A DNA stretch of 64,000 nt, taken from an uncultured Saprospiraceae bacterium (GTDB lineage: Bacteria > Bacteroidota > Bacteroidia > Chitinophagales > Saprospiraceae). Where the stretch lies: contig CAYTBT010000003.1 in assembly GCA_964436125.1 (NCBI GenBank), positions 68,878-132,877 of the forward strand. The letters run 5' to 3'. Positions 6,554 through 50,696 of the stretch are shown piece by piece (the first letter of the stretch is position 1; each line of letters begins with the position of its first letter). The notes under the pieces are model-generated. The model was given only the letters and a program-made list of their open reading frames with translations, ran no database searches and had not been told where the DNA came from. Position numbers and translations under genes: made by a program.

Positions 6554-6719
6554 ATATGACTAGTGCAACGCGGAAGCTTTTAAAATCCTGAAACCTTTAT
6601 ACTCAAGTAGTATCGACACTTTTCCTAAGCTCTCAGAAAATAGCACATGCTAGCGCAAGTAAAATATTTGCGTAAGCAGATACCCCATAATTTATATTCA
6701 CCTTGTAATTATCAGCCTT

Positions 6720-7193
6720 TTACTTCCCTTGAAAATCGTATTCAATCATCGGGAGATCGACGACTTTGGACTCTTTGTAAGAAATACTTACATAATTTAA
6801 AAACCCACCGGTAGAGCGAGCAACGTGCCGCGCAAATGATTTTAGGCTCGTATAATAAAGGTCGGCAAAATCCATATCCATTTTGGGTAAAATTTCTGTC
6901 AAGCCCGACAAGCGCTCCGCTATAATTTCATTCGCTTGCTCCGGATCACGCGGCAATTCATTAATAAGTTCTTTTAAACGCTTATTAAAATTCTCCCCTA
7001 CTTTTTTATAAAATGCGCTCATATCATCATGATAAGTATAGGAACGCACCTTGGCTATCCGCTCGGATTCATGTACCTCTTTATCGAGCAATAAGCCTTC
7101 ACTGCCACCGATCAATAAGGTTATATATGGAATGCTGTCAAAGACCAATGCTTTCTCTTTATCAGTTAATTTTTCCAGAGCTTTAGCTAGCAT
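6720..7193 (-). CDS. Hypothetical protein
   Basis: 157-aa ORF with normal composition. No family recognised. Confidence 0.5.
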   Translation of the reverse strand: MLAKALEKLTDKEKALVFDSIPYITLLIGGSEGLLLDKEVHESERIAKVRSYTYHDDMSAFYKKVGENFNKRLKELINELPRDPEQANEIIAERLSGLTEILPKMDMDFADLYYTSLKSFARHVARSTGGFLNYVSISYKESKVVDLPMIEYDFQGK

Positions 7194-7448
7194 ATTTTTT
7201 TGGATTTTTATGAGCTAATTGAATTTGCCGCAAAGATAATAGTTCCTAGGATTATTCTTGCACCTTCAGGCAAAATAATTACCTTTATTCCTCGATTTTA
7301 TTTTAACTTAATGTAAGCTTACGCAAATATCGGAGCTTGCACAACTAACTCGAATTTACAGAAAAATAAACCACATTACAAAGAGATATTTTGTGCATAT
7401 TGTATTTCTTCTGTATAATGATTAGGTATAACCAAGAAAAAGACATCC

Positions 7449-10085
7449 GTGGCAAAAACAGGCAAAAAGACAAGTTCTTCTGAGAAAAAGGGAAAAATAA
7501 CCCCTTTGATGCAGCAATACTTCAAATTAAAAGCACAATATCCCGATGCAGTGCTTTTATATCGGGTCGGCGATTTCTATGAGACATTCGCAGAGGATGC
7601 ACAGAGAATTGCTGATATTCTAGGAATTGTGCTTACCAGCCGTAATAACGGAGGGAATGATATTGCTCTTGCCGGCTTCCCCTATCACTCACTGAATGTG
7701 TATCTGCCCAGACTCGTCAAGGCAGGCCTCCGAGTAGCAATATGTGAACAACTTGAGAAGCCACAGAAAGGCAAAAAGGTCGTTAAACGCGGTGTTACAG
7801 ATATTGTAACTCCCGGATTGACAACTGATGATGAACTACTCGACAATAAAAGCAATAATTACCTTGCCTCTATCCACTATGCAGGGAAAGATAGGTATGG
7901 AGCTGCTTTTCTCGATATCTCAACCGGTGAGTTCTATGTCAGTGAAGGGAATGCAATTGATATCGATAAATTACTTCAATCCTTTACACCCAATGAAATA
8001 ATTCTTTCACGGAAGAAGGAAAAGGATTTCTTTCAGAGATTTGGGAATACTTTTTACACGTATGGCATCGATGAATGGGTTTATACGCTGGATTACGGAC
8101 AAGAGAAATTAAAAGAACATTTTAAGGTCAGCTCTTTGAAGGGATTTGGGATTGAAAACATGCAGGAAGCCCAAGTAGCAGCAGGATCAATTCTTCACTA
8201 CCTTACATCGACTGAAAATAGACACGTCGATCATATCAATAAAATCCAAAGGCTGGAAAAGGACGGATACGTATGGCTTGATAAGTTTACGATAAGGAAT
8301 CTGGAGCTACTTCATTCTCCTTTTAATACCGGCAAGCCCTTGCTCGACGTCCTCGACTTTACACTAACACCGATGGGTGGAAGGCTCTTAAAAAAATGGA
8401 TCATCCTGCCATTGACTGATATTGAAAAAATCAATCAAAGGCATAATATTACAGATTATTTTGTCAAGCATGAAGACCTGCGACAAAATCTCCGGGACTT
8501 CCTCGCGCGATTCGGAGACCTGGAGCGTTTAATCTCCCGCGTCCCCATGGGAAAGATTCATCCCAAAGCAATGCGACAACTCTGCTATTCACTTTCCCTT
8601 ATCCCTCAAGTAAAAGACTTACTAGAGCAAACAGAAAATAAAGATTTTCTCGCCATTACCGCCATGTTCAAGGATTGTAATCCTATTCAAGAAAAAATCG
8701 ACAGGACCATTGTGGATGAGCCACCTGCAAATTTTAACAAAGGTAAGGTTATTGCCGATGGTGCAGTCCCCGAAATTGACGATTTAAGATACACGATTTC
8801 TCACAGTAAGGATATTCTAGCAGAGTTACAAGCTAAGGAATCAGAAGCAACCGGCATCGACAATCTCAAGGTCGGATTTAACAAGGTATTTGGCTATTAT
8901 CTGGAAGTAACTAATAAATATAAGAACAAAGGGCTCGTTCCCGAGCATTGGGTCAGGAAGCAGACTTTAAAAAATTCAGAGCGATACATCACTGATGATT
9001 TAAAGAAAATTGAAGAAAAAATCCTGCATGCTGAGGAAAAATCCAAGGAACTCGAAGAGGAGGTTTACGAGGATCTCGTCAATGCAGTAAATAAATATGT
9101 AAAAGACATCCAGGAAAATGCCTCCTATCTCGCCCAATTCGACTGCCTTGCAGCATTTGCGGAAGCTGCAGTTATCAATAAATATACCCGTCCTACGATC
9201 GATCAAAGCAAGGAAATTGATATTATTGATGGACGGCATCCGGTTATTGAACAATTTTTGGAACTCGGTGAAGATTATGTACCCAATGATATTTTCCTCA
9301 GTAATGATGAACAACAGATCCTCATGATTACGGGACCGAATATGAGTGGAAAGTCCGCTCTTTTACGCCAGACAGCACTGATTTCCCTCATGGCACAGAT
9401 GGGCAGCTTCGTCCCTGCTTCACAAGCTCGACTCGGTATAGTAGATAAAATTTTCTCCCGTGTGGGCGCATCCGACAATATCTCCAGTGGAGAATCTACC
9501 TTTATGGTGGAAATGAATGAGACGGCAAGTATTCTCAACAATATCTCTGAAAGGAGTCTTATTCTACTCGATGAAATCGGTCGTGGAACTAGCACATACG
9601 ACGGTATTTCTATAGCTTGGTCGATTGCCGAATTTCTCCATGAATCACCCTATAAACCTAAAACCCTATTTGCAACACATTATCACGAGTTAAATGAGCT
9701 CGAAAAGACCTATGACAGAATTAAAAACTACCATGTTGCAACCCATGAAACAGGCCAGAAGGTAGTTTTTCTCCGCAAATTAAAAAAGGGCGGGTCGCAA
9801 CATAGTTTTGGTATCCATGTGGCCAAGATGGCAGGCATGCCAAATTCTTTATTGAAGAGAGCGGACCAAATATTAAAACAACTTGAACAAAAACTCGATA
9901 AGGGCGAAAAAGTAAAAGATCTGGAAATTCCCGTCCAAGAATTCCAGTTGCAACTCTTTCAACCCAGCAATGAAAAAGCGGACAAGATTAAATCTTTTCT
10001 CGAGGATATCGACATCAATAGCCTCACTCCTATTGAATGCATGATGAAATTAAAGGAATTAAAAGATATCAGTGAGGAAGGATAA
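7449..10085 (+). CDS. mutS: DNA mismatch repair protein MutS
   Basis: 878 aa. N-terminal mismatch-binding region (TPLMQQYFKLKAQYPDAVLLYRVGDFYE), Walker A GPNMSGKS and DEIGRGTSTYDG. Confidence 0.95.
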   Translation: MAKTGKKTSSSEKKGKITPLMQQYFKLKAQYPDAVLLYRVGDFYETFAEDAQRIADILGIVLTSRNNGGNDIALAGFPYHSLNVYLPRLVKAGLRVAICEQLEKPQKGKKVVKRGVTDIVTPGLTTDDELLDNKSNNYLASIHYAGKDRYGAAFLDISTGEFYVSEGNAIDIDKLLQSFTPNEIILSRKKEKDFFQRFGNTFYTYGIDEWVYTLDYGQEKLKEHFKVSSLKGFGIENMQEAQVAAGSILHYLTSTENRHVDHINKIQRLEKDGYVWLDKFTIRNLELLHSPFNTGKPLLDVLDFTLTPMGGRLLKKWIILPLTDIEKINQRHNITDYFVKHEDLRQNLRDFLARFGDLERLISRVPMGKIHPKAMRQLCYSLSLIPQVKDLLEQTENKDFLAITAMFKDCNPIQEKIDRTIVDEPPANFNKGKVIADGAVPEIDDLRYTISHSKDILAELQAKESEATGIDNLKVGFNKVFGYYLEVTNKYKNKGLVPEHWVRKQTLKNSERYITDDLKKIEEKILHAEEKSKELEEEVYEDLVNAVNKYVKDIQENASYLAQFDCLAAFAEAAVINKYTRPTIDQSKEIDIIDGRHPVIEQFLELGEDYVPNDIFLSNDEQQILMITGPNMSGKSALLRQTALISLMAQMGSFVPASQARLGIVDKIFSRVGASDNISSGESTFMVEMNETASILNNISERSLILLDEIGRGTSTYDGISIAWSIAEFLHESPYKPKTLFATHYHELNELEKTYDRIKNYHVATHETGQKVVFLRKLKKGGSQHSFGIHVAKMAGMPNSLLKRADQILKQLEQKLDKGEKVKDLEIPVQEFQLQLFQPSNEKADKIKSFLEDIDINSLTPIECMMKLKELKDISEEG

Positions 10086-10203
10086 ATTTTTACTGATGAT
10101 GCTTCTTTCCCCTTTGCTTACTTCCAAGTAAAAGAGCCGACAAGCTACATCGTAAGGGCTTTCAAGTAGAAAGGCTCTCAGTCTCCTGAAAGCCTTCTCT
10201 TTG

Positions 10204-10276
<73 letters not shown>

Positions 10277-10411
10277 ATATATTTTTCGTTTTCCCTAGCG
10301 GACTGCAAATATATAACTTCTCTATTTCATAACAAAGAAATCCATAATTTCTTTACTAAATACTTCAGAGCAACTCTACCTATCATAAACGATCTCCCCT
10401 ACACCTCAATA

Positions 10412-11233
10412 TTATTGTTCCTTCTGAGCATTTAGCCCCCAATCGTAATCTTTAAAAATAATTTTGGTAGTCGAGTCGATGCCTAGTGGTTTATATAAAT
10501 CACCACTATCCCCTTGCGAAGAAATAAAATCACCGGCATACCACTTAAAAATCTTTGAGACGTAAGCCGTGTCACCATTCACAAGTTCATTCCACTTAGA
10601 ACCTTTGATGAATTTAGCTCCTGCCTGATCGAGCTGAACATCAAGTTTATCCGCCGTATAAGCTTGATTGCTTAAAGGTGGGCATGAATTGGACGCACAG
10701 ACAATGGCAAAATGAATCCGCGGTTCATTAAATTTCTCTCGCAAAATCTTATTTTCGATATCATCGAGGCAATAAGTCTTATCACCGATATGAATAAACT
10801 TAATATCCCATGGTGTCTTCACGGCAGGATTATCACTTTTTATCTCCTTAATACTTTCTACAGGATAATGATTTAAAATGAGCTCAATTGTAAAGGCATT
10901 GTATGCGTTAATCCAATATGCAAGTCTTTCCTCTCGCGACCACTCAAGTGTCGGTGGATTCTTTGAAAGCACAGTAAGATACTTTTCCAACTCATCTTGA
11001 GCTTCCGCAAATCCCCTATAATTCACAAGCCCTTCATCGTTTACATATTCCTGAAGCAAATCGGTAAATAAAGTATGGTTTATCGGGTGCTCAGGAATCG
11101 AATCATGCACTAGATTCTCTTGCGTATACAGATCTTTCTCACTTTCAGCAGAGCCCGGATTTACACAAGCTAAAACTACAAATATGTATATACTCACAAG
11201 CACGCCCCCTATTCTTTTTACATTATCATTCAT
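10412..11233 (-). CDS. DUF547 domain protein (secreted)
   Basis: 273 aa with a signal peptide. The ERLAYWINAYNAFTIELIL and FAIVCASNSCPPL motifs are recalled as typical of DUF547. Confidence 0.7.
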   Translation of the reverse strand: MNDNVKRIGGVLVSIYIFVVLACVNPGSAESEKDLYTQENLVHDSIPEHPINHTLFTDLLQEYVNDEGLVNYRGFAEAQDELEKYLTVLSKNPPTLEWSREERLAYWINAYNAFTIELILNHYPVESIKEIKSDNPAVKTPWDIKFIHIGDKTYCLDDIENKILREKFNEPRIHFAIVCASNSCPPLSNQAYTADKLDVQLDQAGAKFIKGSKWNELVNGDTAYVSKIFKWYAGDFISSQGDSGDLYKPLGIDSTTKIIFKDYDWGLNAQKEQ

Positions 11234-11366
11234 CTCAAAAAATAGAATTAAAGATCTCCTATAACATCTAGTCTATCGTATGGAAAAATCAATCTACACT
11301 TCCCACATCATGTATCGTCCAGCAATCCCTCTTCTCAACACACAAGCCACAGGAATTTAATAAAAA

Positions 11367-12245: not shown

Positions 12246-12920
12246 TCATTCAGTTTTACATTGTTGAAGAGGTGAATTCATTTAACACAAGTAATTTCAT
12301 GAGACTCCATTTATTTGCTTACGCAAATATTCTTATCCGTCAACCCTTATCCATATTCCTCTCCGCAAAGATATCCATTGCAGAGCAATTCACAGCTTTT
12401 CACCATCGACTTTTCTTTAAAACAAAAGGATATTCTTCTATTCTCAAGCCATAACTACATCATTTCAATCAATTCAAAAGGTCTTAATTTTACTTTTCAT
12501 ATATTATACTAAGCAATATAAGAATACAGAAAAGAAGATAAGTAATAAGCACTGTAGTATATCGATCTAATCGTGAGTCAAAATCAAAATAATTACTATT
12601 TTCTTCAACAATTCTTTTTATTCTACATTTTATTTTATATTCGAACCTTGTTACTTAATTTGCTTTACTGACGACAATGCAAGAAAGATAATCTATAGCC
12701 ATTTAATCAGCGACAACGCTGGTATAATGCAATTCACAGGACAGATAATCCCTAAATATTGCTCGTTTAAGTGAAGTGATAGAGTAAATGGAATTAATTG
12801 CAATAATCTTATATTGTTGTTGTTTTAATGAATTAACATAGTAATAACATTATAATGACAGAAATAAAATTATTGCGGTGTATTTATTAATTATCAAGCA
12901 TCATTTTAAACATTTATGTT

Positions 12921-13634
12921 ATGGACAATTCAAGTTTAACACAGTTGGAGATCCAAAATCTCATCAATCTGTACAATTCTGAATTGAGAAAGCTGCATTT
13001 TCAATACAGCAAAACTCAGAATACTATTAAGGAGCTACAAGACTCTCTTGAAGGAGTTGAAATAGGTCAACAAGTCCCAGGAGATATAAGTACTGTAGAA
13101 GAACCGGAAACACCGGTAAAACGCGGTCCGGGAAGACCACCGAAGAAGCGTGGACCGGGAAGACCGCCTAAGGCCAAACGTGGACCGGGAAGACCGCCTA
13201 AGGCCAAGCGTGGTCCGGGAAGACCACCGAAGGCCAAGCGTGGTCCGGGAAGACCACCGAAGAAACGTGGACCGGGAAGACCACCGAAGAAACGTGGACC
13301 GGGAAGACCACCAAAGGCTAAAAGTGCTTCAACCGGCACTAAAAGCTCTTCTACAGGTAGAAAGAAACGCGTAGTGAAAGGTGGTGGTTATAAGCTGAGT
13401 GATTGGGATAAGTTCCTTATTCATACAATTCAACAAAGTAGTAGCCCCATGATTAATAAAGAGATTCTCGCTGTTGCAAAGGAAAAGTATAAGAATGAGT
13501 CAGAATCCAATTTAAGTGGAAAAATCTCTCGTTCTATCCATAAACTTGCCAATAAGCGGAAAGTTCTTAAAAAGCATAAGTACGAGGGTCGCGGCTATGC
13601 TTATACAGTTAATCCTAATGCTAAGTGGCATTAA
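12921..13634 (+). CDS. DNA-binding protein candidate with seven tandem AT-hook-like repeats (K)RGPGRPPK(A/K) and a C-terminal winged-helix-like module
   Basis: 237-aa ORF. The repeat codons are in frame, whereas the overlapping ORFs in other frames are repeat shadows. Each repeat has a GRP core flanked by basic residues. Confidence 0.7.
13118..13323 (+). repeat. Seven tandem 27/30-nt coding repeats (cgtggaccgggaagaccaccgaag...)
   Basis: Direct reading. The units differ mainly at synonymous or K/A positions. Confidence 0.95.
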
Positions 13635-14382
13635 TACACTTTGTTTCTCAGTTTACATGGGGCTTCTGAGTGGATATTTTCTCGTGAATAGTTTTTATCT
13701 ATAATTTCCCTGATATATCACTTTATGCCAGCCTTTTAAGCTAGAACAAGCATAGTATTATATTACTGAAGAAAGAAGGTAGAATAACTTATTAATCCAG
13801 GTTATAAATCCGGGCTATTGTCGTTTATATCAGTGCCACGGAAAGCCTGACTACTTAATCGGATAAGTTATTCTCCTTTTATCTCTCTTTTCCTTTCACA
13901 TCTGTGCATATCCCTTATTTCCCAAATTATGTAATGCGCCAGGGTCGCACACGATAGAAATGTGCCTGAATGTAGTCTTTGATTCGACGAGACCTTTGGC
14001 CCTTAAACAACCATTAATGAGGAAATCAAGATCTCCCATCCTAGACTATCAGAAGCTTTTATACTTACTAGCCGCTCACAGAAACTCGTCTTTATTCCGC
14101 CCAGGACAGATCCAGCGACAACTTGACATTCTTATGCCTCATCAGTACTACTCTCATTTATGATAAAAACCAAATTCGAGCAAGCACATACCCGACAGAA
14201 TGCGACCTGCGGCCATACCGGGGACATATATTCACATTTAAAGACCTTTCTGTCTTTAATTTTGCATTTGCCGAAAGGCAGAATAGAGAGATTAAATCAT
14301 CAAGCTATGCATAAGGAATTAAGTTCAGCATTCTAGATCAAACAACTTTTATCAAGGTCAGAGGACGCAATAAATCAGATGT

Positions 14383-17187: not shown

Positions 17188-19233
17188 TCAATCAATTCTA
17201 TGAATCTCTCCATCGGTAATCGTCACTACTTGTGCGCCTTTATAACCACGACTGATTACCTTCTGCTGTATTGCTCTTGCGGTATCGACATCAGAATAAT
17301 CTCCTAGGAGAAAGATAGTGAAGTTTCCATGTTTCATCCTCTGAATATTTCCAAGTTCATCAACCTTCTCCGGGCTAAACCATTTGGGTTGTGAATAGGT
17401 GGCAATTCTGACTTTATATTTTCCGACCGGAGTTGATTCCGCAGCAAAATCGTCATCCTGGCGCTCAGTAGATGCAGATTGTTGCGTTTCAGCCGCTTGT
17501 TCTGCCACTGTAGGCCTTAAATCAGCAGAACTTGAGCTATATATTACTTGCTCTTCAACGATAAATGCATCTCCATATCCACGGCTCCGGATGACATTCA
17601 GTGTTTTCTTTGCACGTTCATAGCTATCATAACTTCCCACTCGTATTTTGATTACTTCGGGGAAATACACCTTATATACTGCATCTACGTCGCTTAATTG
17701 CTCGCCATAGTATTGAAGTTGCTCAGTATTGTTCAATCCTACGATAGCAACTTGAACAGTATAGATAGTTTCAATATCGCCGGCTGGATTCTGCTTTATT
17801 GCAGCTAATTCGCCTTTTTCTAGCCGGTCAGTTAGTTGCACCATAACAGGAACGCTGGCTCTCCGGGCATCAGCTTCTCCACTTGTGTGCGTCTTGCCTT
17901 GGCTCACATTTGCGAAAGCTGATTGAAATTCATTGCTCATATCAATATGCTTTTCCGTATAAGATGTATTCACTATCTCCGCTGCCTTATCCATCGTAGG
18001 CAGAGAATTAAAACTGTACACATCCACATTTCCTTCTTCATTCATCGCAGTAAGGTAATATTGATTGCCGATATGCGTCAATGCATATTCATCGCGTTGC
18101 GTATTCACGCCATACCCAAGATTCATCGGTTTGGTCCACTCTGCTGTCTCGGCATTGAATTGAGTCTGGAAAAGATCGTATCCACCAAATCCCTTCATCC
18201 AATTACTCGCATAAACAAGCTTTTCCTTTATGCTTTGAGGAAATGTTTCGTCCCCCGCTGTATTTATAGTACTTCCCAAGTTTTCAGCTTTTGTCCACTT
18301 CCCATTCAAGGTCCGAGTCGAGCGGTAGATGTCATAACCGCCATAGCCACCCTTCTTATTACTCATGAAGTAAATAGTGTTGCCATCCGCTGTGTAACAA
18401 GCCGCTGCAGTGTTATAATCAACGCCATTAAAGGGCATCGCCTTTATATCAATCAACTCTCCGTCAATTAATTGTGCTGTATATAAACTCATGCCATTTA
18501 CCTCACTTCTCAATTCTGTAAGGAACCCAGCTTGCGTAATCCGTGTAAAAATAACCTCATTGCTCGTCGGATTCATCGCGATCAATGGCATAGCTTTCCA
18601 TGCCTGTAAATCTTTTAACAGAAATGTCGGTTGTGAAAATGAACCTCCTTCCGTTCTGTGCGTAGAAAATAGCTGCGTCGTCTCGGCAGCGGAATTAAAA
18701 CTCGGCCGCACCATGTCTCGACGGTCTGAGGCATACACTATATTCTCCTCATACGCCGCAGGAAAGCCATCAAATGCCGTTGTGTTCCAGCTCATTTCTT
18801 TCCGCACTACAGCTACCTTCTGTGTTTTGGCAGTATTTTCAGCCCAGCGCATAGCTTCCACAAAATGCTGGCTAACATACGGATCAAAATTCCCATAAAC
18901 TTCATAATACTTCATCGCTTCAGCATACTCTCCTTGCTTTCTCAATGCCTCAGCAAGTGGCAAATACGCTTTCTGAAAATCCGGATAATTCTTCACGATA
19001 TCTTTATACACTTTAATCGCTTTCCCATCTTGTGCTGTTGTCGTGTATAAACGCGCGAGCTTGTATAACTGAAATTCATCAAGCATTTCATACGATGCCT
19101 GATATACAGCAATTGCATCGGAATATTCCCCCATATCAGAATATACTTCTGCCAGTTCTACATTCCCTTTCTGCGCTATTATAGCTTGCGCAAATGTCAT
19201 TATACATACCAAGAATAAAATTGATTTCTTCAT
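17188..19233 (-). CDS. TPR / WD40-like (PD40) beta-propeller / SPOR-like domain protein
   Basis: Signal peptide MKKSILFLVCIMTFAQA, N-terminal TPR-like repeats, repeated GGYGGYDIY / GFGGYDLF PD40-like motifs, and two C-terminal Y(T/K)VQ(V/I)A...GY SPOR-like modules. The start is taken at ATG 19233. Confidence 0.6.
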   Translation of the reverse strand: MKKSILFLVCIMTFAQAIIAQKGNVELAEVYSDMGEYSDAIAVYQASYEMLDEFQLYKLARLYTTTAQDGKAIKVYKDIVKNYPDFQKAYLPLAEALRKQGEYAEAMKYYEVYGNFDPYVSQHFVEAMRWAENTAKTQKVAVVRKEMSWNTTAFDGFPAAYEENIVYASDRRDMVRPSFNSAAETTQLFSTHRTEGGSFSQPTFLLKDLQAWKAMPLIAMNPTSNEVIFTRITQAGFLTELRSEVNGMSLYTAQLIDGELIDIKAMPFNGVDYNTAAACYTADGNTIYFMSNKKGGYGGYDIYRSTRTLNGKWTKAENLGSTINTAGDETFPQSIKEKLVYASNWMKGFGGYDLFQTQFNAETAEWTKPMNLGYGVNTQRDEYALTHIGNQYYLTAMNEEGNVDVYSFNSLPTMDKAAEIVNTSYTEKHIDMSNEFQSAFANVSQGKTHTSGEADARRASVPVMVQLTDRLEKGELAAIKQNPAGDIETIYTVQVAIVGLNNTEQLQYYGEQLSDVDAVYKVYFPEVIKIRVGSYDSYERAKKTLNVIRSRGYGDAFIVEEQVIYSSSSADLRPTVAEQAAETQQSASTERQDDDFAAESTPVGKYKVRIATYSQPKWFSPEKVDELGNIQRMKHGNFTIFLLGDYSDVDTARAIQQKVISRGYKGAQVVTITDGEIHRID

Positions 19234-21819: not shown

Positions 21820-23516
21820 ATTTCTTTATTTACTGCATATTTTCGCTTACGCAAATACCGGTAAACGAGCCCAAATAAAAGCAAGACTACAAGAGGTAGC
21901 CCGATATTAAGTACTTGCCAGTATGTTTCTTCCTTCTGTGCTTTAATCACATTCAATAAACGGATTTCAACATCGCGATTCCGCGCCTTGAAAATACCAT
22001 TGGGATTAATCAGATACTCGACGGCGTTGAGGAGAAACTGTTTATTGGCATATAAGATTCCATTATATTTATTATAACCGGCTTCGCGATACTCCTTAGT
22101 AGCCGGATTAACTTCATTTTTGATGATATCGCCGTCTGTGACAAGAAGCATCCGCGTCGGACTACTCTTGGGTTTAAACTGCATGTCTAGCTCCCTTAAT
22201 CCTTCTGCCATTGACTTGGACACGCGATTCTGATACAAGGATGGAAACTCTCCCTCTAGCAATAAAGCCGTGGGATACGGACCTTTATCAAAAAGTGCCG
22301 GATCCGGCTTATACCGCAACATTTCAAATGTCATAGCAAATGGCACTCTCTGCAACCTGCTGTATCTGGAACTGAACAAGAAGGGTGTTTTCTTCACATT
22401 ATATTGTGTCTTCACGGTATCAAATGTGCTCGGACACTTTAGATTTATCAGATTGAGTGATTTAGTGATTTCTGTTTTGCCGGAAGGCACTATAACAGGA
22501 TGATAATACCAGTCAAAAAGCTTAATCTGTGGCTTATTCCCCTGCATACCGGTGGTAAGTGGTATCTGGGAGCAATTCAGATCGAGGATAACATCCTCAT
22601 TTAAACGGAAACCATAGTTAAAAAACATATCCTCAAGATTGAGGTTGATTACCTGAGGATAGAAAGCTCCTTCCTGCTTCATGCTATCGAGTGTAATATT
22701 GAGTTTATCAACAAGCCAGATAACTTTTCCCCCGTTCATGATGTATTGATCAATCATGAACTTCTTTTTCTCTGTAAATGCTTTTCTCGGCTTGGCTATG
22801 ATGAGGACTGCTACTTTATCATCGATATAATAGGTAGAATCTAGATTAATCACACCGGTACGATAATATTTTTCCAGGCTATTCCTCACGGATTCGATCT
22901 GGTATTCTGACAATTCCCCTTGACCTTGGGTAAACATCACTATGGGCTTTATAGCGAAGCTCGTATTCTGGAAGGCCTTGGCGAGTTTATATTCGAGAAG
23001 ATTAACCGAGTTATTCAGCGCTTTTTCTTGTCCTATTCCACCGCCTTGTGCCTGAAGCAAGTTCACATAACTAGTTCTATCGGCAACATTGAACTCTGCA
23101 TAAGGATACAGTAGTCGCTGTGTGCGTTCATCGTTTCTTACAATATTCACGGTTACAGGAAGTACATCCTTCTTGGACATAACCCTACGGAAGGCATTAA
23201 TTTCTTTCTGCGTACCTTTACTGGGATCGACAAATTCATATTCAATCGCCGATGGGTTAATCGATGCCATCTGCGCCATCATCTCTTCAGTAGCTTGTTG
23301 CAATCGCTTGAAGCTCGCCGGCATTTCTCCTTTTAAATAGATGCGGACATAAACATTCTTGTCGAGGTTACGCAAGACCTTCTTGGTAGGTTCCGTAAGT
23401 GTAAACCGTTTCTCTTCTGTCATGTCGATCTTCCCAAACCAGTACGATGCTATTATATTCACCAGGAAAACAAGTACAAGAGCTAGTATTGCTTGTATGA
23501 TATACTGTTTCTTCAT
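21816..23516 (-). CDS. gldG: Gliding-motility-associated ABC transporter substrate-binding component GldG
   Basis: 566 aa with N- and C-terminal TM helices around a large extracytoplasmic domain. It sits directly after gldF, which is the GldG architecture. Confidence 0.75.
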   Translation of the reverse strand: MKKQYIIQAILALVLVFLVNIIASYWFGKIDMTEEKRFTLTEPTKKVLRNLDKNVYVRIYLKGEMPASFKRLQQATEEMMAQMASINPSAIEYEFVDPSKGTQKEINAFRRVMSKKDVLPVTVNIVRNDERTQRLLYPYAEFNVADRTSYVNLLQAQGGGIGQEKALNNSVNLLEYKLAKAFQNTSFAIKPIVMFTQGQGELSEYQIESVRNSLEKYYRTGVINLDSTYYIDDKVAVLIIAKPRKAFTEKKKFMIDQYIMNGGKVIWLVDKLNITLDSMKQEGAFYPQVINLNLEDMFFNYGFRLNEDVILDLNCSQIPLTTGMQGNKPQIKLFDWYYHPVIVPSGKTEITKSLNLINLKCPSTFDTVKTQYNVKKTPFLFSSRYSRLQRVPFAMTFEMLRYKPDPALFDKGPYPTALLLEGEFPSLYQNRVSKSMAEGLRELDMQFKPKSSPTRMLLVTDGDIIKNEVNPATKEYREAGYNKYNGILYANKQFLLNAVEYLINPNGIFKARNRDVEIRLLNVIKAQKEETYWQVLNIGLPLVVLLLFGLVYRYLRKRKYAVNKEI

Positions 23517-25958: not shown

Positions 25959-26111
25959 AGGTAGATGGAATACAATTGAGGTTTATAGGATTATCTACTG
26001 CTGAATTTTCTTTTCCATGTCACATGACTTGGCTTCCACAATATATTTTTGCTTCCGCAAATGCGAAACACGACATACTACATCTCAACCTAGTAACTTA
26101 GATTATACCAT

Positions 26112-32609: not shown

Positions 32610-33317
32610 CTACAGTTGTTGATTTATAAGATCTTTGAACCTATCCCATGGCGAAACATTATACGGCTCGCTGTGTAAGCGTAAGGGTTCATCTGTCGTA
32701 GGATGTTTCACAACAAGGGAATAACAATGTAGCGCTATACTTGCATTGGGAAGATTTTCCTTTGATTTATATTTTCTATCGCCGACGATGGGAAAACCTG
32801 CCTTGGCGAGTTGAGCTCTTATCTGATGTGGCCGTCCGGTCTCTAGTGTAATATCGAGCAAGAACATATCGCCCAGTTGACCTATCATCGTATAATCCAG
32901 AACAGCTTTTTTGCTACCGGAATATTGCTGTGTCGATGCCTTTACAATATTCTTTTTTCTATTCTTCTTCAGATAATGCACAAGTTTATCATTAAATCGC
33001 GGCACAGCACCTTGCACGAGAGCGATATATTTCTTTTCCGTTCGCCTTTCGGCAAATTCTCGATTGAGTCTCTTCAATGCTTTGGAAGTTCTAGCGTAAA
33101 CCATTACTCCGGAAGTCGGTCTATCCAGTCGATGCACACAGCCCATAAATACCTTTCCCGGTTTATTATATTTCTCCTTTATATAAGCCTTGGTCCAGTC
33201 TATAACGCTATCATCTCCTGTTCTATCTCTTTGGGATAACCAGCCGGATGGTTTTACAATTCCGAGGACGTGATTATCTTCATAAATCACCTTTATCTGC
33301 TGTCTTGAGTTCTTCAT
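32610..33317 (-). CDS. RluA family pseudouridine synthase
   Basis: Catalytic motif HRLDRPTSG, plus GRPHQIR. Confidence 0.85.
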   Translation of the reverse strand: MKNSRQQIKVIYEDNHVLGIVKPSGWLSQRDRTGDDSVIDWTKAYIKEKYNKPGKVFMGCVHRLDRPTSGVMVYARTSKALKRLNREFAERRTEKKYIALVQGAVPRFNDKLVHYLKKNRKKNIVKASTQQYSGSKKAVLDYTMIGQLGDMFLLDITLETGRPHQIRAQLAKAGFPIVGDRKYKSKENLPNASIALHCYSLVVKHPTTDEPLRLHSEPYNVSPWDRFKDLINQQL

Positions 33318-40251: not shown

Positions 40252-41685
40252 ATGCGTAGTATTTTTAGATATTTATGGATTCCGGTAGTATTATTTCTCT
40301 TGCATTCCTGCTCGGTAACACAAGAATACCAGTCGCCGGAGTTAATCCAGCAAGATTATTTCCGTACAGATAGCCTCGCAAAAGATAGCTTATCCGGAGA
40401 TAGCTTAACGATAGCTGATATTTCCTGGACGGAAATGTTCACTGATTCATTACTTCAGGAATATATCAATAAAGCATTGGTAAATAATATTGATATCCGT
40501 GTAGCAATGGAACAGATTAAAGCAGCTGAAGCCTATCTCAGGCAGAGTAAATATGCTTATCACCCTTCAGTATCTGCAGGACTTAACTATACTGGAAGCA
40601 TTCTTTCAAAAAATGGCTCTCAGGGATCAATAGTCCAGGCTACAGGAAATCGATTTTTTGATAATTTTGACCTTTCGGCAAATCTCTCCTGGGAAGCAGA
40701 CATCTGGGGGAAGATAAGAAGCCAGGTTGAAGCAACTGAGGCTTCATATCTGCAGTCTGTCGCAGCACATAAGGCCATAAAAACCAATCTTATCGCTGCT
40801 ATCGCTACCACATACTACCAGCTTCTCGCGATTGATGAGCAGATAGAGGTAACTCAGAGAACAATAGAAACCAGGAAACGAAGTCTTGAAACTACCGAGG
40901 CTTTAAAAGAAGCTGGCGTAGGTTTTATTACCTCCGTAGCGGTAGAACAGACGAGAGCTCAATATCTTGCTGCCCAGTCAATAATTATTGATTTGCGGAA
41001 GCAAGAACGCCTTCTTGAAAATACTCTATGCCTCCTTATGGGAGATCCGCCTAATGCTATTCAACGTACTGATCTCGATGCGCAGAACATCACTACGGAT
41101 TTAAAAATAGGTGTACCTGTTCAATTATTGCGCAATAGGCCGGATGTCATGGCAGCTGAGCAAAATTATCGATATGCATTTGAGATGAGGAATGTTGCTT
41201 ATACGCATTTCTACCCGTCCTTGACAATCGGTGCTAGTGCAGGTTTACAATCTCTACAATTATCTAACTGGCTCAGCTTGAACTCGCTATTTGCCAATGT
41301 TCTCGGTGGCCTAACCGCACCTTTATTTAACCGTTATATGCTCAAGACACAATATGCTGTTGCGCGGATTCAACAAGAACAGGCTAGATTGCATTTCAAA
41401 GGAACTCTTCTACGAGCTAGCAAAGAGGTCTCTGATGCTTTATACGCATATAGTTCTGCAAGCGATAAATTGATTTTAAAAAGACAGGAACATCTTTTGC
41501 TTGAGCAAGCTATTGAAGATTCTCAAGCGCTTCTGGAAAGTGGATTTAACAACTTCAGTTACCTCGAAGTATTGCGCGCACAACAGAGTGCATTGGGGGC
41601 GAGTCTCGATGTTATTAATGCAAGGCTTGCACAATTGCGCAGTATTGTGTCACTTTATGAAGCACTAGGCGGAGGTTGGAAATAA
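40252..41685 (+). CDS. Efflux outer-membrane factor (NodT/TolC family lipoprotein)
   Basis: Lipoprotein signal (LLHSC|S), repeated coiled-coil/barrel halves and the C-terminal LYEALGGGW motif. Confidence 0.88.
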   Translation: MRSIFRYLWIPVVLFLLHSCSVTQEYQSPELIQQDYFRTDSLAKDSLSGDSLTIADISWTEMFTDSLLQEYINKALVNNIDIRVAMEQIKAAEAYLRQSKYAYHPSVSAGLNYTGSILSKNGSQGSIVQATGNRFFDNFDLSANLSWEADIWGKIRSQVEATEASYLQSVAAHKAIKTNLIAAIATTYYQLLAIDEQIEVTQRTIETRKRSLETTEALKEAGVGFITSVAVEQTRAQYLAAQSIIIDLRKQERLLENTLCLLMGDPPNAIQRTDLDAQNITTDLKIGVPVQLLRNRPDVMAAEQNYRYAFEMRNVAYTHFYPSLTIGASAGLQSLQLSNWLSLNSLFANVLGGLTAPLFNRYMLKTQYAVARIQQEQARLHFKGTLLRASKEVSDALYAYSSASDKLILKRQEHLLLEQAIEDSQALLESGFNNFSYLEVLRAQQSALGASLDVINARLAQLRSIVSLYEALGGGWK

Positions 41686-42507: not shown

Positions 42508-42525
42508 CGCTGTTGAAACGGCATA

Positions 42526-42554
42526 GGGGGAACCATACGTTCCCTCTTTTTGTT
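42526..42554 (+). terminator. Leader hairpin plus T-run (candidate attenuator) between the promoter box and the rimP start
   Basis: GGGGGAAC-CATAC-GTTCCCTC stem (8 bp including one G-U) followed by TTTTTGTT. Confidence 0.5.
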
Positions 42555-42575
42555 AGAATTACTTATTCAAGGAAC

Positions 42576-43055: not shown

Positions 43056-43061
43056 GAATTC

Positions 43062-44339: not shown

Positions 44340-44438
44340 GCAATATCGTATATTTTTTCCCTCTTGATCCATTTATTGGCTCAAAGTTTTTATTCTAGCG
44401 ATATTACAATTACATTGAGTAAAAAGTAAGAACACTGC

Positions 44439-47363
44439 ATGGCGAGAAGACTTGTAAAAATAGCGAAAGAACTTAATGTCGGCACCAAAACGATTGTCGA
44501 GCACCTACACGATAGTGGCTTCGAGATTAAAGATCGTCCGACCGCTAAGATTACAGATGAAATGTACCAAGAACTCCTCCGTGAGTTTGAGGATGCTATT
44601 TCCGTGAAACGCCGTGCTGATGAAATTGATATCGGTGCTGCGCGTAACAAAAAAACTCAGGAGAAAAAATCCAATAAAGAATCCAGAAATAAATCTTCCA
44701 AAGATGCTTCAAGCTCTATGCCCAAGGATAAAAGTAAGCCTAAGGATGTAGAAAGTACCGAGAAAAGCTCTGATAATAAAGAGGATTCAAGCACAAAACA
44801 AGCTAAGGAAGATAAACTGCCGCCCAAGAAAGAGGAAGACCTCGCCAAGGAAAAAACTGATACTTCTTCAACCCAAGAACCGAGTGAAGAAAAGTCTACT
44901 GAAGAACAGAAGTCTTCTGTCACTGATAAAAACAAGGAAAAAGCTTCTGACACAGAAGATAAGAAAGAGAGACGAGGGCTGAAAGTCGTGGGCAAAATCG
45001 ATCTGGAAAAGAAGAAGGAAAAGAAGGGCAAGAAGAAAGAATCAGATACTCAAGAAGCTAAACAATCGGAGGAGAAAACCTCTCCTACCGAGGAATCGTC
45101 TAGCACAACAGAACCTGAAAAACCTAAGGAAGAAGAACGTAAAACTGAGAAACAAGTAGAGGCTGAAAGCAAGAAAGAAAAACCTGCAGCCGAGAAAGAA
45201 GAAAAGAAAGAAAGTGCTGAAGACGATACGATTAAACGCGTAAGTAAGCCCAAGCTTAAAGGGCTGAAAATCATGGGCAAGATTGATAAAGATAAATTAA
45301 AATCACGGCTCAAGAAGAAGAAATCTTCCAAGGATAAAAAGAAACGAAAGAGAAAGAGGAAAACAATCAGGACCAAGAAAAAAGTCCACAGAAAAAAAGG
45401 ACGTCGTCGTGGTCAGGAACAACAAGAAGTTACTCAGAAAGAAATTGAAGAAAAAATACGCGCTACCAAGGCAAGGATTGCCGGAACGAGTAATAAAAAG
45501 AGTAAACGCAAATCGAGAAAACAGCGCAAGAAAGAAGAGCTTAAAGAAAAACAACTAAGACAAGAGCAAGAACAGATTCAGGAAACCAAGGTACTGGAAG
45601 TTACTGAATTTGTATCCGTATCGGAACTTGCCAGCCTTATGGATGTGCAACCGACCGATGTCATCATGAAATGCATGGATTTAGGTACAATCGTATCTAT
45701 CAATCAGCGGCTTGATGCAGAAATTATTGAATTGGTTGCCTCAGAATATGATTATGATGTAGAGTTCATCTCAGCAGAAGAACAGACAGAAGAAGATAAT
45801 TGGGTAGATGATCCGGAAGATCTTGAACCTCGTGCTCCTATAATTACAGTCATGGGGCACGTTGACCACGGTAAAACCTCCCTCCTTGACTTTATCCGTG
45901 AGGCAAGTGTTGCTACCGGTGAAGCAGGTGGCATCACGCAGCATATCGGAGCTTACGAGGTCGCTGTAGGTAACGACAATGAATTTAAAACAATCACCTT
46001 CCTCGATACACCGGGACACGAGGCCTTTACGGCGATGCGTGCTAGAGGAGCCAAGATTACCGATGTCGTTGTTATTATTATCGCTGCCGATGACCAGATA
46101 ATGCCGCAGACCAAGGAAGCTATCTCCCACGCAGAGGCTGCCGGTGTCCCAATCGTTTTTGCCATTAATAAAATCGATAAGGCCAATGCTGATCCCGATA
46201 GAATTATCAATGAGCTTGCGCAAATGAACTACCTCGTTGAAGAATGGGGAGGTAAATATCAATCACAACGCATCTCAGCCAAGACCGGAGAAGGCATTGA
46301 TGAACTCCTGGAAAAAATTACCCTCGAAGCTGAAATGCTGGAACTAGAAGCCAATCCCAATCGACCGGCCATAGGTGCGGTCCTCGAGGCTTCACTCGAT
46401 AAAGGACGCGGTTACGTAGCCAAATTGCTCGTGCAAGAAGGAACTTTGAGAATCGGCGATCCTATTGTTGCCGGTCAACATGCAGGAAAAGTAAAAGCAA
46501 TGTTCAATGAAGTGGGACAACGCGTTGAAGAAGTTGGTCCTTCACAACCTACCTTAATTCTCGGCCTATCCGGGGCACCACAAGCCGGTGAGAAGTTTAA
46601 GGTTATGGAAAGTGAACAAGCTGCGCGTAGCCTTGCCAATTCACGTGAACAGATCATCAGAGAACAGACCAATCGCGCTACCAAACGTATTTCCCTCGAT
46701 GAAATCGGCAGAAGGCTTGCGCTCGGTGACTTTAAAGAACTTAACCTCATTGTTAAAGGTGATGTCGATGGAACCGTCGAGGCCCTCTCCGATTCACTGA
46801 TTAAACAATCTGTAGAAAATATTCAAGTCAATGTCATCCATAAAGGCGTAGGACAGATTATTGAATCAGATGTCCTCCTCGCCTCCGCTTCAGATGCGAT
46901 TATTATCGGATTCCAGGTAAGACCTTCACTAGGCGCGAGAAAACTCGCAGAAAAAGAAGGTATTCAGATTAAAACTTACTCTGTAATCTATGAAGCTATC
47001 GAAGAAGTGAGAGCCGCAATGGAAGGTATGCTTGAACCCAAGGAAGAAGAGAAAATAGTCGGAGAAGTGAAAGTGCGTGAAGTCTATAAAATCTCCAAGG
47101 TCGGTACCGTCGCAGGTTGCTATGTCCAGGAAGGTTATGTTTCTAGAAATACCTTTATAAGAGTTATCCGTGAAGGAATCGTCATCTATCCCAAGAAAGA
47201 AGGGGTAATCGGTGAAATACGATCTCTGAAACGCTTTAAAGATGACGTTAAAAAGGTTACTAGCGGCATGGAGTGCGGTATATCCGTAGAAAATTATAAT
47301 GACTTGAAAGTAGATGACATCATTGAAGCATACGAAATTATTGAGGTGGAACAAACCCTGTAA
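44439..47363 (+). CDS. infB: Translation initiation factor IF-2
   Basis: G-domain motifs [13 protein letters not shown] and NKID. A long K/E/S-rich low-complexity N-terminal region generates the antisense shadow ORFs in the track. Confidence 0.95.
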
Positions 47364-47433
47364 TTTCCTTCTTTAAGTCATTCTTTCCACCTTTTTCATC
47401 GGCTTACCGCCTTGCTCTATAAGTGCCTATTCT

Positions 47434-48192: not shown

Positions 48193-48210
48193 GCAATTAA
48201 CCTTAGTAAG

Positions 48211-49150
48211 CGGCAATCAGTAAAAGGCAAACAGTAAATGGCGAATTTGCGAATGCGCGAATGCGCGAATTTGCGATTCAATTTTGAGCAAATACACAAA
48301 ATTATTGACAAGCCCAACCTTTCAACTCTTCAACCTTTCAACTCTTCAACTTTACGACTTCACAAATTTGCAACCTACAACATTGAACGAGAAAAGCGCA
48401 GCTCTTATCAAGTACCTCAATCAGCTAATGGCCAACAGCCAATGGCTAAGAGCTCGCCGTAGGCGCAGCCGGTAATCGGTAACAGGTAATCGGCTCATTG
48501 CTCATTGCTCATTGGAATACAACTATCTTCTCCATCAAAATTGAAACACTTAAACCATTTTTCAACCCAACCTCAAATCAGCCAATGGCTAATGGCTAAT
48601 AGCTAATAGCTAAATTGCGATTCTGCACCTCTGTCTTCAAGATGTTCCTTATCGATTATGATAGACGAACGGCCGTCCATCTCTATGAAGCCTACGAGGA
48701 ATCAGGGTTCAGGCGTCAGGCGAGAACAGAACGTTAATTTTCAACTCTTCAACCTCTCAACTCTTCAACTTCACAACTCTTCAACCTTTAAACTCTTCAA
48801 CCTTTAAACTCTTCAACTCTTCAACTTTCAACAAAATAAGAATCATCTTTCTCAATTACTTCAATCAGCCAATGGCCAAGAGCCAATGGCCAAGAGCTCC
48901 TTTACGACTTTGCGACTTCACAGTAAGTGCACAAAACAAAATCAATTTACATAATCAGCGAATCGCTGCCCTACTTACGACTTACGCCTAGCTACTCCGA
49001 CGAAGCCGGCACCAGTTACCAGTCTCAAGTAACCAGTCACAAGATTAGACTTACGACTCACGACTCTTTTACTTACGCCTGCGGCGAAGCCGCTTCGAGT
49101 CACGAGTTACGAGTCACCAGTCACCAGATTTTAAACTTTCCCCGCTGAAT
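48211..49150. repeat. Mosaic array of short tandem oligo-repeat modules (7-17-nt units, each present 2-4 times)
   Basis: Direct reading gives ggcaa(t/a)cagtaaa x2, gcgaat(ttgc/gcgc) x4, caac(c/t)tttcaactcttcaac runs, cagccaatggc(c/t)aagag x2 twice, ctcattg x3, aatggct x2 plus aatagct x2, caggcgt x2, ttacgac runs and gagt(c/t)ac(g/c)ag x4. Confidence 0.9.
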
Positions 49151-49178
49151 ATTCTTCTATACTTAGAATTTTTATGTT

Positions 49179-50696
49179 ATGAGTAAAGCACTGTTAATGA
49201 TATTGGATGGATGGGGACTCGGGACAAAAAAGTCCGCTGATGCCATTCAACTCACCCACACACCATTCTTTGATTATTTGATGGAAAAATATCCGCATTC
49301 TACCCTGAAAACATTCGGCAATTATGTCGGATTGCCGGAAGGACAAATGGGAAATTCCGAGGTCGGCCACCTGAATATCGGAGCCGGGAGAATCGTATTT
49401 CAGGATTTGCTCCGCATCAACAATGACATCGAATCGGGAGAATTTTACGAGAATGAAACCCTCAATCAAGCATTTGCGGAAGCTGAAAAGGAAAATAAAA
49501 CGGTGCACTTCATGGGCATTTTCAGCGATGGCGGCGTACACGGCCACATCAGGCACCTTGAAGCCTTGCTGAAAGCCTCCGACAAGTACAAAATCAAGGA
49601 AAAATACGTCCATGCCTTCACCGACGGGCGCGACACGAGCCCTACCGGTGGTATTGATTATTTCAAGGAGATGTTGCCGGTGTTCAAGGAGCACGATGCC
49701 CGGTTGGCAAGCGTTATAGGCCGGTATTATGCGATGGATCGCGACAATCGTATGAATCGGGCGGCGCTTGCTTACAACCTGCTCGTCAAGGGCGAGGGCA
49801 AGTATTGCAAGGATATTCTCGACTGTATCCGGGTAGCTTACGCAAATGATGTTACGGATGAATTCCTGCCGGCTCTGCGTTGTCTGAATGGCAAGGAAGG
49901 GCTTATTGCCGATGGCGATCTTGTCATTTTCTATAATTTCAGGACGGACCGGCCGCGACAATTAACGAGTATGCTTACGCAAATGAATTATCCTGAACAG
50001 GGAACGAAGGCGCTGGACATCGATATGATTACGATGACGCAATATGAGAAAGATTTTAAGGGCATCAAGACCTTGTATTCCAAGGATGTGATTAAAAACT
50101 CGCTCGGTGAGCTTGTTTCCAATGCCGGCTTGACTCAGCTACGCATTGCGGAAACGGAAAAATTCCCTCATGTGACCTATTTCTTTTCGGGCGGTCGCGA
50201 AAAGGAATACGAAGGGGAAAAACGCATTCTCATCCCATCGCCGAAGGTCGCTACTTACGATCTGCAGCCGGAAATGTCGGCTTACAAGGTGACGGATGCC
50301 TGCGTAGCGACGATTGAGGATGAGGCACCGGATTTTATCTGCCTCAACTTTGCCAATCCCGATATGGTCGGTCACACGGGCGTATTGGAGGCAGCAAAGT
50401 ATGCCTGTATGGTCATCGATCGATGTATGGGACAGGTTGTCCGTGCGGCATTGAATAAGGATTACGGTATCATTATCATTGCCGATCATGGCAATGCCGA
50501 TTATATGATTAATGAAGATGGCAGTCCCAATACCGCCCACACCAAGAATCTCGTTCCCTGCATTTATGTATCGAATGATGGTGTTTCAAGCAGTATGTCT
50601 GATGGTATTCTTGCGGATGTAGCCCCTACCCTATGTGAGATATTGGGATTGAAAAAAGCCGATGAAATGACCGGAAAAAGTCTGATAAACCGATGA
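49179..50696 (+). CDS. gpmI: 2,3-bisphosphoglycerate-independent phosphoglycerate mutase
   Basis: 505 aa. Motifs LMILDGWG, NSEVGHLNIGAGR, DGRDT and ADHGNA. Confidence 0.95.
   Translation: MSKALLMILDGWGLGTKKSADAIQLTHTPFFDYLMEKYPHSTLKTFGNYVGLPEGQMGNSEVGHLNIGAGRIVFQDLLRINNDIESGEFYENETLNQAFAEAEKENKTVHFMGIFSDGGVHGHIRHLEALLKASDKYKIKEKYVHAFTDGRDTSPTGGIDYFKEMLPVFKEHDARLASVIGRYYAMDRDNRMNRAALAYNLLVKGEGKYCKDILDCIRVAYANDVTDEFLPALRCLNGKEGLIADGDLVIFYNFRTDRPRQLTSMLTQMNYPEQGTKALDIDMITMTQYEKDFKGIKTLYSKDVIKNSLGELVSNAGLTQLRIAETEKFPHVTYFFSGGREKEYEGEKRILIPSPKVATYDLQPEMSAYKVTDACVATIEDEAPDFICLNFANPDMVGHTGVLEAAKYACMVIDRCMGQVVRAALNKDYGIIIIADHGNADYMINEDGSPNTAHTKNLVPCIYVSNDGVSSSMSDGILADVAPTLCEILGLKKADEMTGKSLINR

Follow-up and report, generated by a model that had tools for sequence, protein, structure and literature searches.

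Why does one short word recur, letter for letter, in genes and in the spacers between them along a single stretch of a bacterial chromosome? We addressed this question in 64 kb of DNA from an uncultured Saprospiraceae bacterium (GCA_964436125.1, contig CAYTBT010000003.1, positions 68,878 to 132,877; hereafter the window), in which a pattern search for the word ATTTGCGNAAGC (W1; 12 bases, 11 of them fixed and one, N, free) finds 16 exact copies (plus strand, 7; minus strand, 9). The expected number is 0.05 copies in 100 dinucleotide shuffles and 0.05–0.11 under Markov models of order 1–5, i.e. the excess is at least 150-fold. Near misses are few: only 4 one-mismatch neighbors are present (~1.6 expected), the 26 two-mismatch neighbors correspond to the background level, and of the window's 23 ATTTGCG heptamers, 16 are part of a full W1. 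At N, G (7 copies) and T (6) predominate over C (2) and A (1), and weak flank preferences (C at −1, 72%; A at +3, 72%; A at +7, 66%) extend the word to approximately c-ATTTGCGNAAGC-t-n-A-a-n-n-A.

A previous, sequence-only reading of this DNA had listed 13 W1 copies, all of them real in position and strand; three had been missed (3737 on the plus strand, 11001 on the minus strand, and 40991 on the plus strand), and the G variant, given there as four copies, has seven. Our counts agree with its six T variants, its three copies of the 16-mer GCATTTGCGGAAGCTG, its perfect dyad at 12313–12328, and its placement of copies both in genes and between them, with three in gpmI. It had also argued, for two of the gpmI copies, that a shared peptide cannot explain them, and this holds for the word as a whole. 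Specifically, 5 of the 16 copies are intergenic (3737, 6666, 7317, 12317, and 26051), and the 11 found in open reading frames (ORFs), 6 sense and 5 antisense, fall into four frame/orientation classes with the underlying peptides FA[EQ]A, LRK, A[FSY]AN, and L[T]QM, which rules out a peptide motif. Two further explanations that the same reading had allowed for also fail: a k-mer artefact does not yield 16 copies where the Markov models predict so few, and a dispersed repeat is ruled out by unrelated flanks, with no extended homology between copies, and by ungapped protein alignments. Because the genic sites are ungapped in alignments of orthologous proteins, the copies arose by substitution.

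The excess is not peculiar to the window. W1 recurs in contigs from relatives, the MutS, GpmI or ABC-F proteins of which are 68–78% identical to those of the window, with 5 copies in 22.6 kb of L082 (GCA_964423575.1), 6 in 13.7 kb of L205, 4 in 13.2 kb of L206, 5 in 21.1 kb of L210, 3 in 9.6 kb of L214, and 1 in 20.2 kb of L084. Much of this sequence is non-syntenic with the window, so the enrichment is a property of the genomes and not of one locus. The word is common, at ~1 per 4 kb, in relatives with ~76% MutS identity; across the outgroup, i.e. 80 MutS-centered Bacteroidota loci totaling 1.47 Mb, it is found once. The best MutS matches among named organisms reach ~60–62% identity, in Saprospiraceae and related groups, and a scan of a genome collection with MutS returned relatives at ≤60% identity only, none of which carries the word. 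In JGI metagenomes, the conserved pair of gpmI words had 0 matches and the infB context 2 unrelated ones, the clade being absent from that collection, and viral contigs scanned with CATTTGCGNAAGCTG gave 120 single chance matches and no contig with a second copy. A literature search for W1 returned primer coincidences only, and one for uptake sequences in Bacteroidetes returned no relevant report.

W1 has sisters, which the sequence-only reading had not included. Scanned de novo for k-mers, 155 kb of clade sequence yield, tandem repeats aside, nothing but sub-words of W1 and of a second word, W2 (ATTTGCCGNAAGG(C), i.e. ATTT-GCC-GNAA-GG(C)), and a third word, W3 (ATTTGACGNAAGT(C), i.e. ATTT-GAC-GNAA-GT(C)), is also in excess. 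In these 155 kb, W1 (ATTT-GC-GNAA-GC) is the commonest with 37 copies against 0.10 expected, followed by W2 (14 against 0.13) and W3 (7 against 0.06), although orthologous copies are not independent and such pooled statistics overstate the sample size somewhat. The window itself contains four W2 copies (0.07 expected) and one W3. The words follow a common pattern, ATTT + G(x)C + GNAA + G(x')C, in which the optional x and x' are complementary, and W1 is thus one of three words with compensatory differences. Their proportions vary among lineages. For example, the SRR25338212 lineage (L212 and L215) has no exact W1 in 17 kb and carries W2 and W3, while W2 outnumbers W1 in L084. These lineage differences resemble dialects; in the outgroup loci, raw 10-mer counts are so noisy that further dialects would not stand out.

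What do the compensatory differences mean? In 166 kb of clade sequence, the pattern TTTG-x-CGNAAG-y occurs with x/y as C/G (16 times), A/T (8), T/G (2), G/C (1), and T/A (1). The two bases can therefore pair in 28 of 28 occurrences and the eleven non-pairing combinations are never found, while in the outgroup the corresponding table is flat; neither other stems nor GNGA or GAA loops are in excess in the clade sequence. The support for an intramolecular stem is this covariation of the optional pair, as seen by sequence comparison only. T.G wobbles are present and the A.C or C.A combinations required for a fold of the complementary strand are absent, which identifies the GNAA strand as the one that folds. 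From this pairing pattern, we infer that the element is a 5' ATTT followed by a strand-specific mini-hairpin of two or three pairs, i.e. G-C on the outside, then the optional pair that covaries, then C-G closing over the GNAA loop. That the words form a DNA-level, clade-specific, hairpin-forming family is very probable.

The W1 core, GCGNAAGC, is an instance of the published mini-hairpin motif GCGNNAGC. Mini-hairpin DNA of this kind, d(GCGNNAGC)/d(GCGNAGC), is extraordinarily stable, with a melting temperature of 76.5 °C and a sheared G.A pair, is nuclease-resistant, and is poorly bound by SSB (2026 review, PMC13037366). Its natural sites include the primase origins of phages G4, St-1, and alpha3, as well as ssiA and the N4 promoters (PMC13037366). 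As in the DNA described by Hirao and co-workers, the W1 core has two G-C pairs, a potential sheared G.A pair, and a free N. By contrast, the known mini-hairpins are single sites in phage or plasmid origins, whereas the family described here recurs about once per 3 kb of chromosome, adds a fixed ATTT tail and three-pair variants (GCC/GGC and GAC/GTC), and is known from sequence alone. The minimal W1 hairpin folds with −0.7 kcal/mol under the DNA nearest-neighbor parameters of ViennaRNA, and parameters of this type miss the mini-hairpin motif (PMC13037366). Intergenic copies often lengthen the stem to ATTTGC/GCARAT (6666, 12313–12328, 3737, and 26051), and for the one at 12313–12328 the DNA fold is −4.2 kcal/mol with a z of −5.75. 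Genic copies keep only the tip of the stem, and we rejected a consistent long hairpin around every copy since only intergenic copies extend it.

The words are also held in place. At four-fold degenerate sites of identical codons, the window and its relatives share 33% of bases (713/2145), i.e. these sites are saturated. In three species (window, L205, and L206), the infB word and two of the gpmI words are nonetheless exact, and the mutS word (9155) is exact in L082 and L213 and has one mismatch in L084, L214, and L215; conservation at orthologous positions, a check that the sequence-only reading had called for, is thus found in infB, gpmI, and mutS. At the first gpmI site, the free N is the first position of a codon and is G (Glu) in the window, C (Gln) in L205, and A (Lys) in L206, with the 11 fixed bases kept. 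Given the peptide and the codon usage of the clade, the probability of the word is 0.004–0.024 per site, with 0.004 for infB. The peptides themselves differ from those of the outgroups: MutS reads FAKV or FARV in more than 100 outgroups and FAEA in the clade, and GpmI has A[FL]xYA and ESYxEG in outgroups and FA[EQK]A and AYAN in the clade. Because the outgroup residues differ, the word has been imposed on these proteins.

New copies appear as well. The third gpmI copy (49973) lies 137 nt from the second and has 2 mismatches in L205 and 6 in L206, the copy in the ABC-F gene is species-specific and falls in a variable linker, and mutS of L214 has a new copy of its own in a variable part (alignment column 1179). 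The antisense copies in L214 mutS and at 33602 in the window arose independently in variable linkers, and both encode S-A-S-A-N; this suggests that accommodating the word in a protein has a preferred, "cheap" solution. What the sequence comparisons show as a whole is a clade-specific, strand-symmetric, structure-carrying word family, made by substitution and held at the DNA level.

How are the copies distributed? Counted over the window and its relatives, the family has 61 copies, of which 24 run sense and 21 antisense to a gene and 16 are intergenic. As 84% of this sequence is coding, the intergenic excess is modest (1.7-fold, P = 0.02). The orientation relative to gene strand, which the sequence-only reading had proposed to map, is therefore balanced, and the absence of any transcriptional orientation argues against a role at the level of mRNA. 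Strands are mixed in every relative locus, and the density is ~1 per 3 kb, both strands being used. That reading had likened the word to DNA uptake sequences or to another architectural or regulatory word; the former likeness is borne out at the level of sequence, while a promoter or regulatory role does not fit, as 74% of copies are in ORFs and sense and antisense copies are about equally frequent. All 21 family copies of the window lie before position 49985, and W1, W2, and W3 are absent from its last 14 kb (50–64 kb; P = 0.006). This word-free part includes a Y1 transposase/REP-like cluster (REP, repetitive extragenic palindrome) that relatives lack, and it also carries genes for copper resistance, an IS91 element, and a restriction-modification cassette. 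A replication origin at ~35.5 kb, considered on account of a switch in gene strand and GC skew, was dropped because no cluster of DnaA boxes is found there; the orientation of the words does not change across this point.

Which known system does the family resemble? Its sequence-level signature matches, point by point, that of the DNA uptake sequence (DUS; ATGCCGTCTGAA) of Neisseriaceae and the uptake signal sequence (USS; AAGTGCGGT / ACAAGCGGT) of Pasteurellaceae. These are words of 9–12 nt, hugely enriched and far above their one-mismatch variants, and they occur on both strands, in genes and in spacers, with lineage-specific dialects, stability in orthologues, forced changes of amino acids, and weaker AT-rich flank preferences. 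Likewise, the short word described here is enriched hundreds-fold in the several separate loci sampled, occupies both strands of coding and intergenic DNA without orientation bias, varies between lineages in a dialect-like manner, and keeps positions that are stable in orthologues and imposed on protein sequence. The family differs in belonging to another phylum, in a word that is unrelated to DUS, and in lacking the DUS and USS cores (CTG; GCGG), the GCGG of USS being present in W1 only when N = G. It is also about three-fold less dense, and it has three co-existing, compensatory variants that define an intrinsic mini-hairpin. Compensation of this kind points to a mini-hairpin on a single strand, a feature absent from classical uptake sequences.

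We favor, with a probability of roughly one in three, the reading that these words tag self-DNA, that they are recognized in single-stranded, folded form, and that biased uptake or recombination has spread them. DUS and USS accumulate by biased transmission of this kind in Neisseriaceae and Pasteurellaceae. Here, a clade-specific factor would recognize the tag when the DNA is single-stranded and folded, and tagged fragments or alleles would be at an advantage during natural transformation or recombination, by more frequent uptake, nuclease protection, or recombination. The tag would accumulate through biased transmission and not through a benefit at each site. Its 11–13 fixed bases would give specificity for the own clade, and the mini-hairpin would mark incoming or resected single strands with a structure that resists nucleases and binds SSB poorly; the hairpin itself suggests that recognition or nuclease protection takes place on single-stranded DNA. 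We favor this reading because of the match with DUS and USS, because a function that needs frequent sites would use a short and already common word instead of 11–13 bases, and because individual selection on about a thousand sites would be costly. Moreover, new copies arise beside old ones at the cost of amino-acid changes, which speaks for a directional drive over a spacing function. In short, the family evolves like an uptake sequence and is built like a mini-hairpin, and there is a realistic chance that the underlying mechanism is new.

Several points weigh against a self-DNA tag. The sample comprises 64 kb of this genome and ~130 kb of relatives, so that "genome-wide" is an extrapolation from several separate loci. 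Neither the window nor the relative loci that were fetched contain competence genes (comEC, comEA, comF, dprA, pilQ, or pilins) or a gene for a motif-specific receptor (a minor pilin of the ComP or ComN/PpdA type). Known uptake sequences are read as duplexes by a pilin and have no intrinsic hairpin, so a signal on a folded strand is not what the DUS/USS model predicts. The density of ~1 per 3 kb is below the ~1 per kb of DUS and USS, and three variants that co-exist in one genome are unusual for DUS dialects. Lastly, site-by-site selection, for replication, repair, or the nucleoid, would also yield the conservation that we see.

Such selection is the basis of a somewhat less probable explanation, in which the ATTT-tailed mini-hairpin is a single-stranded landmark for replication or repair, bound by a primase, a helicase loader, an HUH-type protein, or a recombination mediator, and kept at each site for its use there. 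The element resembles G4-type or ssi priming signals containing GCGAAAGC, its core is the motif found at primase-dependent origins (G4, St-1, alpha3, and ssiA) with its poor SSB binding, the covariation shows that folding matters, and the positions are conserved. However, a lagging-strand or non-template-strand signal should be oriented, and the strands are balanced both in the window (7:9) and relative to genes. Three gpmI copies fall within 500 nt, new beside old, which a spacing-dependent function would not require; about a thousand 11-base sites would be a heavy load for selection alone; and the conserved tail is 5' of the hairpin here, whereas the start site of G4 is located 3' of it. Covariation also bears on whether the words are instead duplex sites for a nucleoid or chromosome-organizing protein that reads the ATTT tract in the minor groove, a possible candidate being the AT-hook-like, winged-helix-like protein encoded at 12921–13634. 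In favor of it, the motif lacks symmetry and extends into an A-rich 3' flank, and this protein with its seven RGPGRPPK repeats is encoded ~600 nt from the dyad copy. Proximity is its only link to the words, and its structural model is of low confidence (pLDDT of 64). We consider a duplex site unlikely, as such a reader leaves unexplained both the 28 of 28 complementary optional bases and the occurrence of T.G without A.C, and as known sites of this type are degenerate, whereas one-mismatch copies are near background here.

Other words read by DNA-processing machines are over-represented too, including Chi, which is read as single-stranded DNA, and KOPS/SRS, with a central N in KOPS. A folded word could accordingly act like Chi, i.e. 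stop degradation by AddAB/RecBCD and promote RecA loading, which would mark DNA of the own clade as repairable and foreign DNA as degradable. The density of Chi in E. coli resembles the ~1 per 3–4 kb observed here, mini-hairpins resist exonucleases, and the words are absent from the region of mobile-element genes. Nevertheless, this is improbable: Chi, KOPS, and SRS are words of 5–8 bases, few-fold enriched and strongly strand-skewed (toward the leading strand for Chi), whereas the words described here have 11–13 fixed bases, are enriched more than 150-fold, and are unskewed (7:9 in 64 kb, the direction of replication not being known for the window). A hairpin acting in RNA, as a terminator, a processing site, or a transcript stabilizer, would be consistent with GNAA being a GNRA tetraloop with a free N, with the T.G (U.G) wobbles, and with the six-pair stems and the 1.7-fold enrichment of intergenic copies. 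We regard it as very unlikely given that, with 24 sense and 21 antisense copies, about half would be transcribed as the non-folding complement; in addition, no U-run follows the hairpin, and an Rfam search of the window at gathering thresholds returned two tRNAs only.

The idea that the words are remnants or targets of mobile elements (REP/RAYT, MITEs, or IS200/IS605 ends), or a repeat dispersed with a gene family, has the least to commend it and is contradicted by our results. A conserved 5' tetranucleotide with a short palindrome, present in many copies per genome, does recall REPs (and REPINs), which are recognized as single-strand hairpins, and an IS200-like Y1 transposase gene is present at 51551–52021. 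However, REPs are extragenic, 20–40 nt long, inserted as units, and clustered around a RAYT gene, whereas 45 of the 61 family copies are in ORFs, the unit is 12–14 nt, protein alignments are ungapped as expected of words made by substitution, and the flanks share no homology. Nor is the word the REP of the window's Y1 transposase, the gene for which is flanked by different hairpins of its own, GACCTCGCCGAGGTC, in 240-nt modules. HIP1 (GCGATCGC) of cyanobacteria is likewise a hyper-abundant exact word found in the coding and non-coding DNA of one lineage, but it is a perfect 8-base palindrome that reads the same on either strand, unlike the asymmetric family described here with its ATTT tail, GNAA loop, and covarying stem. 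The family is not DUS or USS by sequence, and it lacks the defining features of REP, Chi, and HIP1.

What would a self-DNA tag imply? Only Neisseriaceae and Pasteurellaceae are known to have such self-DNA signals (PMC12616744). The family could be a third, independently evolved one, the first outside Proteobacteria, read on a folded strand and self-written into about a thousand sites per genome, essential genes included; we put this forward tentatively, as a possibility with the odds against it. If true, sequence-tagged discrimination of own DNA would be more widespread than two proteobacterial families, the compensatory stem variants would tie the signal to a folded single strand, and the mini-hairpin DNA motif would gain its first chromosome-wide natural role. 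Whatever the function, a force on the DNA suffices to alter residues of MutS, GpmI, and further housekeeping proteins and to keep 11 bases fixed across saturated divergence, and both the modeling of codon and protein evolution and genome annotation have to take it into account.

The individual copies in the window are as follows, beginning with the intergenic W1 sites. The first, ATTTGCGGAAGC (3737–3748, plus strand), is located 6 nt from the 5' end of the tRNA-Arg gene, and its 3' flank AAAA lengthens the stem. It has an orthologue in L082 (6184), with N changed from G to A and conserved flanks. The tRNA-Arg gene and its leader, W1 included, are nearly identical between the window and L082 (~6100–6180), and the rest of the spacer has diverged. 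Between two convergent genes, ATTTGCGTAAGC (6666–6677, plus) extends to the hairpin ATTTGC-GTAA-GCAGAT. A T variant (7317–7328, minus) separates the divergent mutS and a 157-aa gene, and is matched in L082 (9816) and L213 (3707) in the same spacer, on the same strand, and with the same N. Upstream of folD, at a distance of 72 nt, the copy at 12313–12328 (minus; word at 12317–12328) forms a perfect hairpin of 16 nt, ATTTGC-GTAA-GCAAAT, and the one at 26051–26062 (minus) is positioned 93 nt upstream of truB, again with a stem lengthened by a 3' flank of AAAA.

Sense W1 copies are found in mutS (9155–9166, plus), where the word encodes F-A-E-A, in a DUF547 gene (11001–11012, minus), in a TPR/SPOR gene (a C variant at 19184–19195, minus), at the 3' end of a gldG-like gene with an ABC_transp_aux domain (21845–21856, minus; the next gene starts 26 nt downstream), in a TolC-like OEP gene (40991–41002, plus), and in gpmI (site 1, 49472–49483, plus). 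Antisense copies include an A variant in the same TPR/SPOR gene (17908–17919, plus), the copy in the ABC-F gene (33602–33613, plus; peptide SASAN, in a poorly conserved linker and in this species only), and a C variant in infB (46214–46225, minus) under the peptide ELAQM. The two remaining antisense copies are both in gpmI, one at 49836–49847 (minus; AYAN), which is exact in all three species, and one at 49973–49984 (minus; MLTQM), a gain specific to this species. Among the sister words, the W2 copy ATTTGCCGAAAGGC (14266–14279, plus, the word being listed at 14267), with a GCC/GGC stem, lies between convergent genes. TTTGCCGGAAGG (22476–22487, plus) is antisense in the gldG-like gene, and TTTGCCGAAAGG occurs twice on the minus strand, sense in a gene for an RluA-type pseudouridine synthase (33045–33056; FAER), where the same 12 nt are identical in L210 and L212, and antisense in the TolC-like gene (40671–40682). 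The single W3, ATTTGACGAAAGTC (26877–26890, plus), has a GAC/GTC stem and is antisense in an ftsX-like gene.

Beyond the words, the window has features of its own. The ORF at 12921–13634 (plus strand) encodes 237 aa with a long N-terminal helix followed by seven tandem RGPGRPPK(A/K) AT-hook-like repeats, which are encoded by a 30-nt tandem repeat at 13119–13326. The C-terminus is modeled by AlphaFold, with low confidence (pLDDT 64), as a helix-helix-helix-strand-strand domain. The protein has no Pfam or NCBIfam match and a PDB search gave nothing useful; a function in DNA binding, as a nucleoid-associated protein, is possible. A stretch of ~1 kb that separates the DUF2400 gene from gpmI (48193–49178) is non-coding and rich in TTCAACTC-type tandem repeats (48315–48350 and 48740–48832) and a GCGAAT repeat at ~48245, while the same gap measures only ~52–61 nt in L205 and L206. 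A TCAACTCT repeat recurs at 52829–52892.

The Y1 transposase gene (51551–52021) encodes 156 aa and forms part of a block at 51259–52365. It is flanked on both sides by direct-repeat modules of ~240 nt that are 82–97% identical and contain several GACCTCG(C/T)CGAGGTC hairpins each, and a third, degenerate copy of the module is found at 52287–52365. Together, the gene and its modules resemble a RAYT and the REP cluster around it. In L205 and L206, the entire block that separates a 179-aa gene from a sulfotransferase gene is missing, which indicates an insertion in this species. Beside this cluster, two adjoining GC-rich hairpins (CCCCGTCCGCCAGAGGCGGAC... and CCCCTCCAATGGAGGGG; 52440–52500) are followed by a tandem repeat of the 11-nt unit AAATTTGCAAT (52526–52566).

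Farther along, genes for a DUF3347 protein, a protein with a haem-binding domain, and an 844-aa multicopper oxidase with an HMBD domain (54655–58707) form a cluster without any word-family copies that likely serves copper resistance. Three genes at 59301–62224, also in the part free of the words, encode an HTH_3 regulator, a C-5 cytosine DNA methyltransferase, and a protein of 464 aa that carries a nuclease domain of the MutH/Sau3AI type; this cassette is probably a type II restriction-modification system that includes a controller protein. The two tRNA genes are tRNA-Arg(TCG) at 3656–3730 and tRNA-Met(CAT) at 10203–10276, both on the minus strand. Near the end of the window, an IS91-family element (62481–63955, minus) is represented by two ORFs, Zn_Tnp_IS91 (63563–63955) and Y2_Tnp (62481–63218), and may be frameshifted or interrupted.

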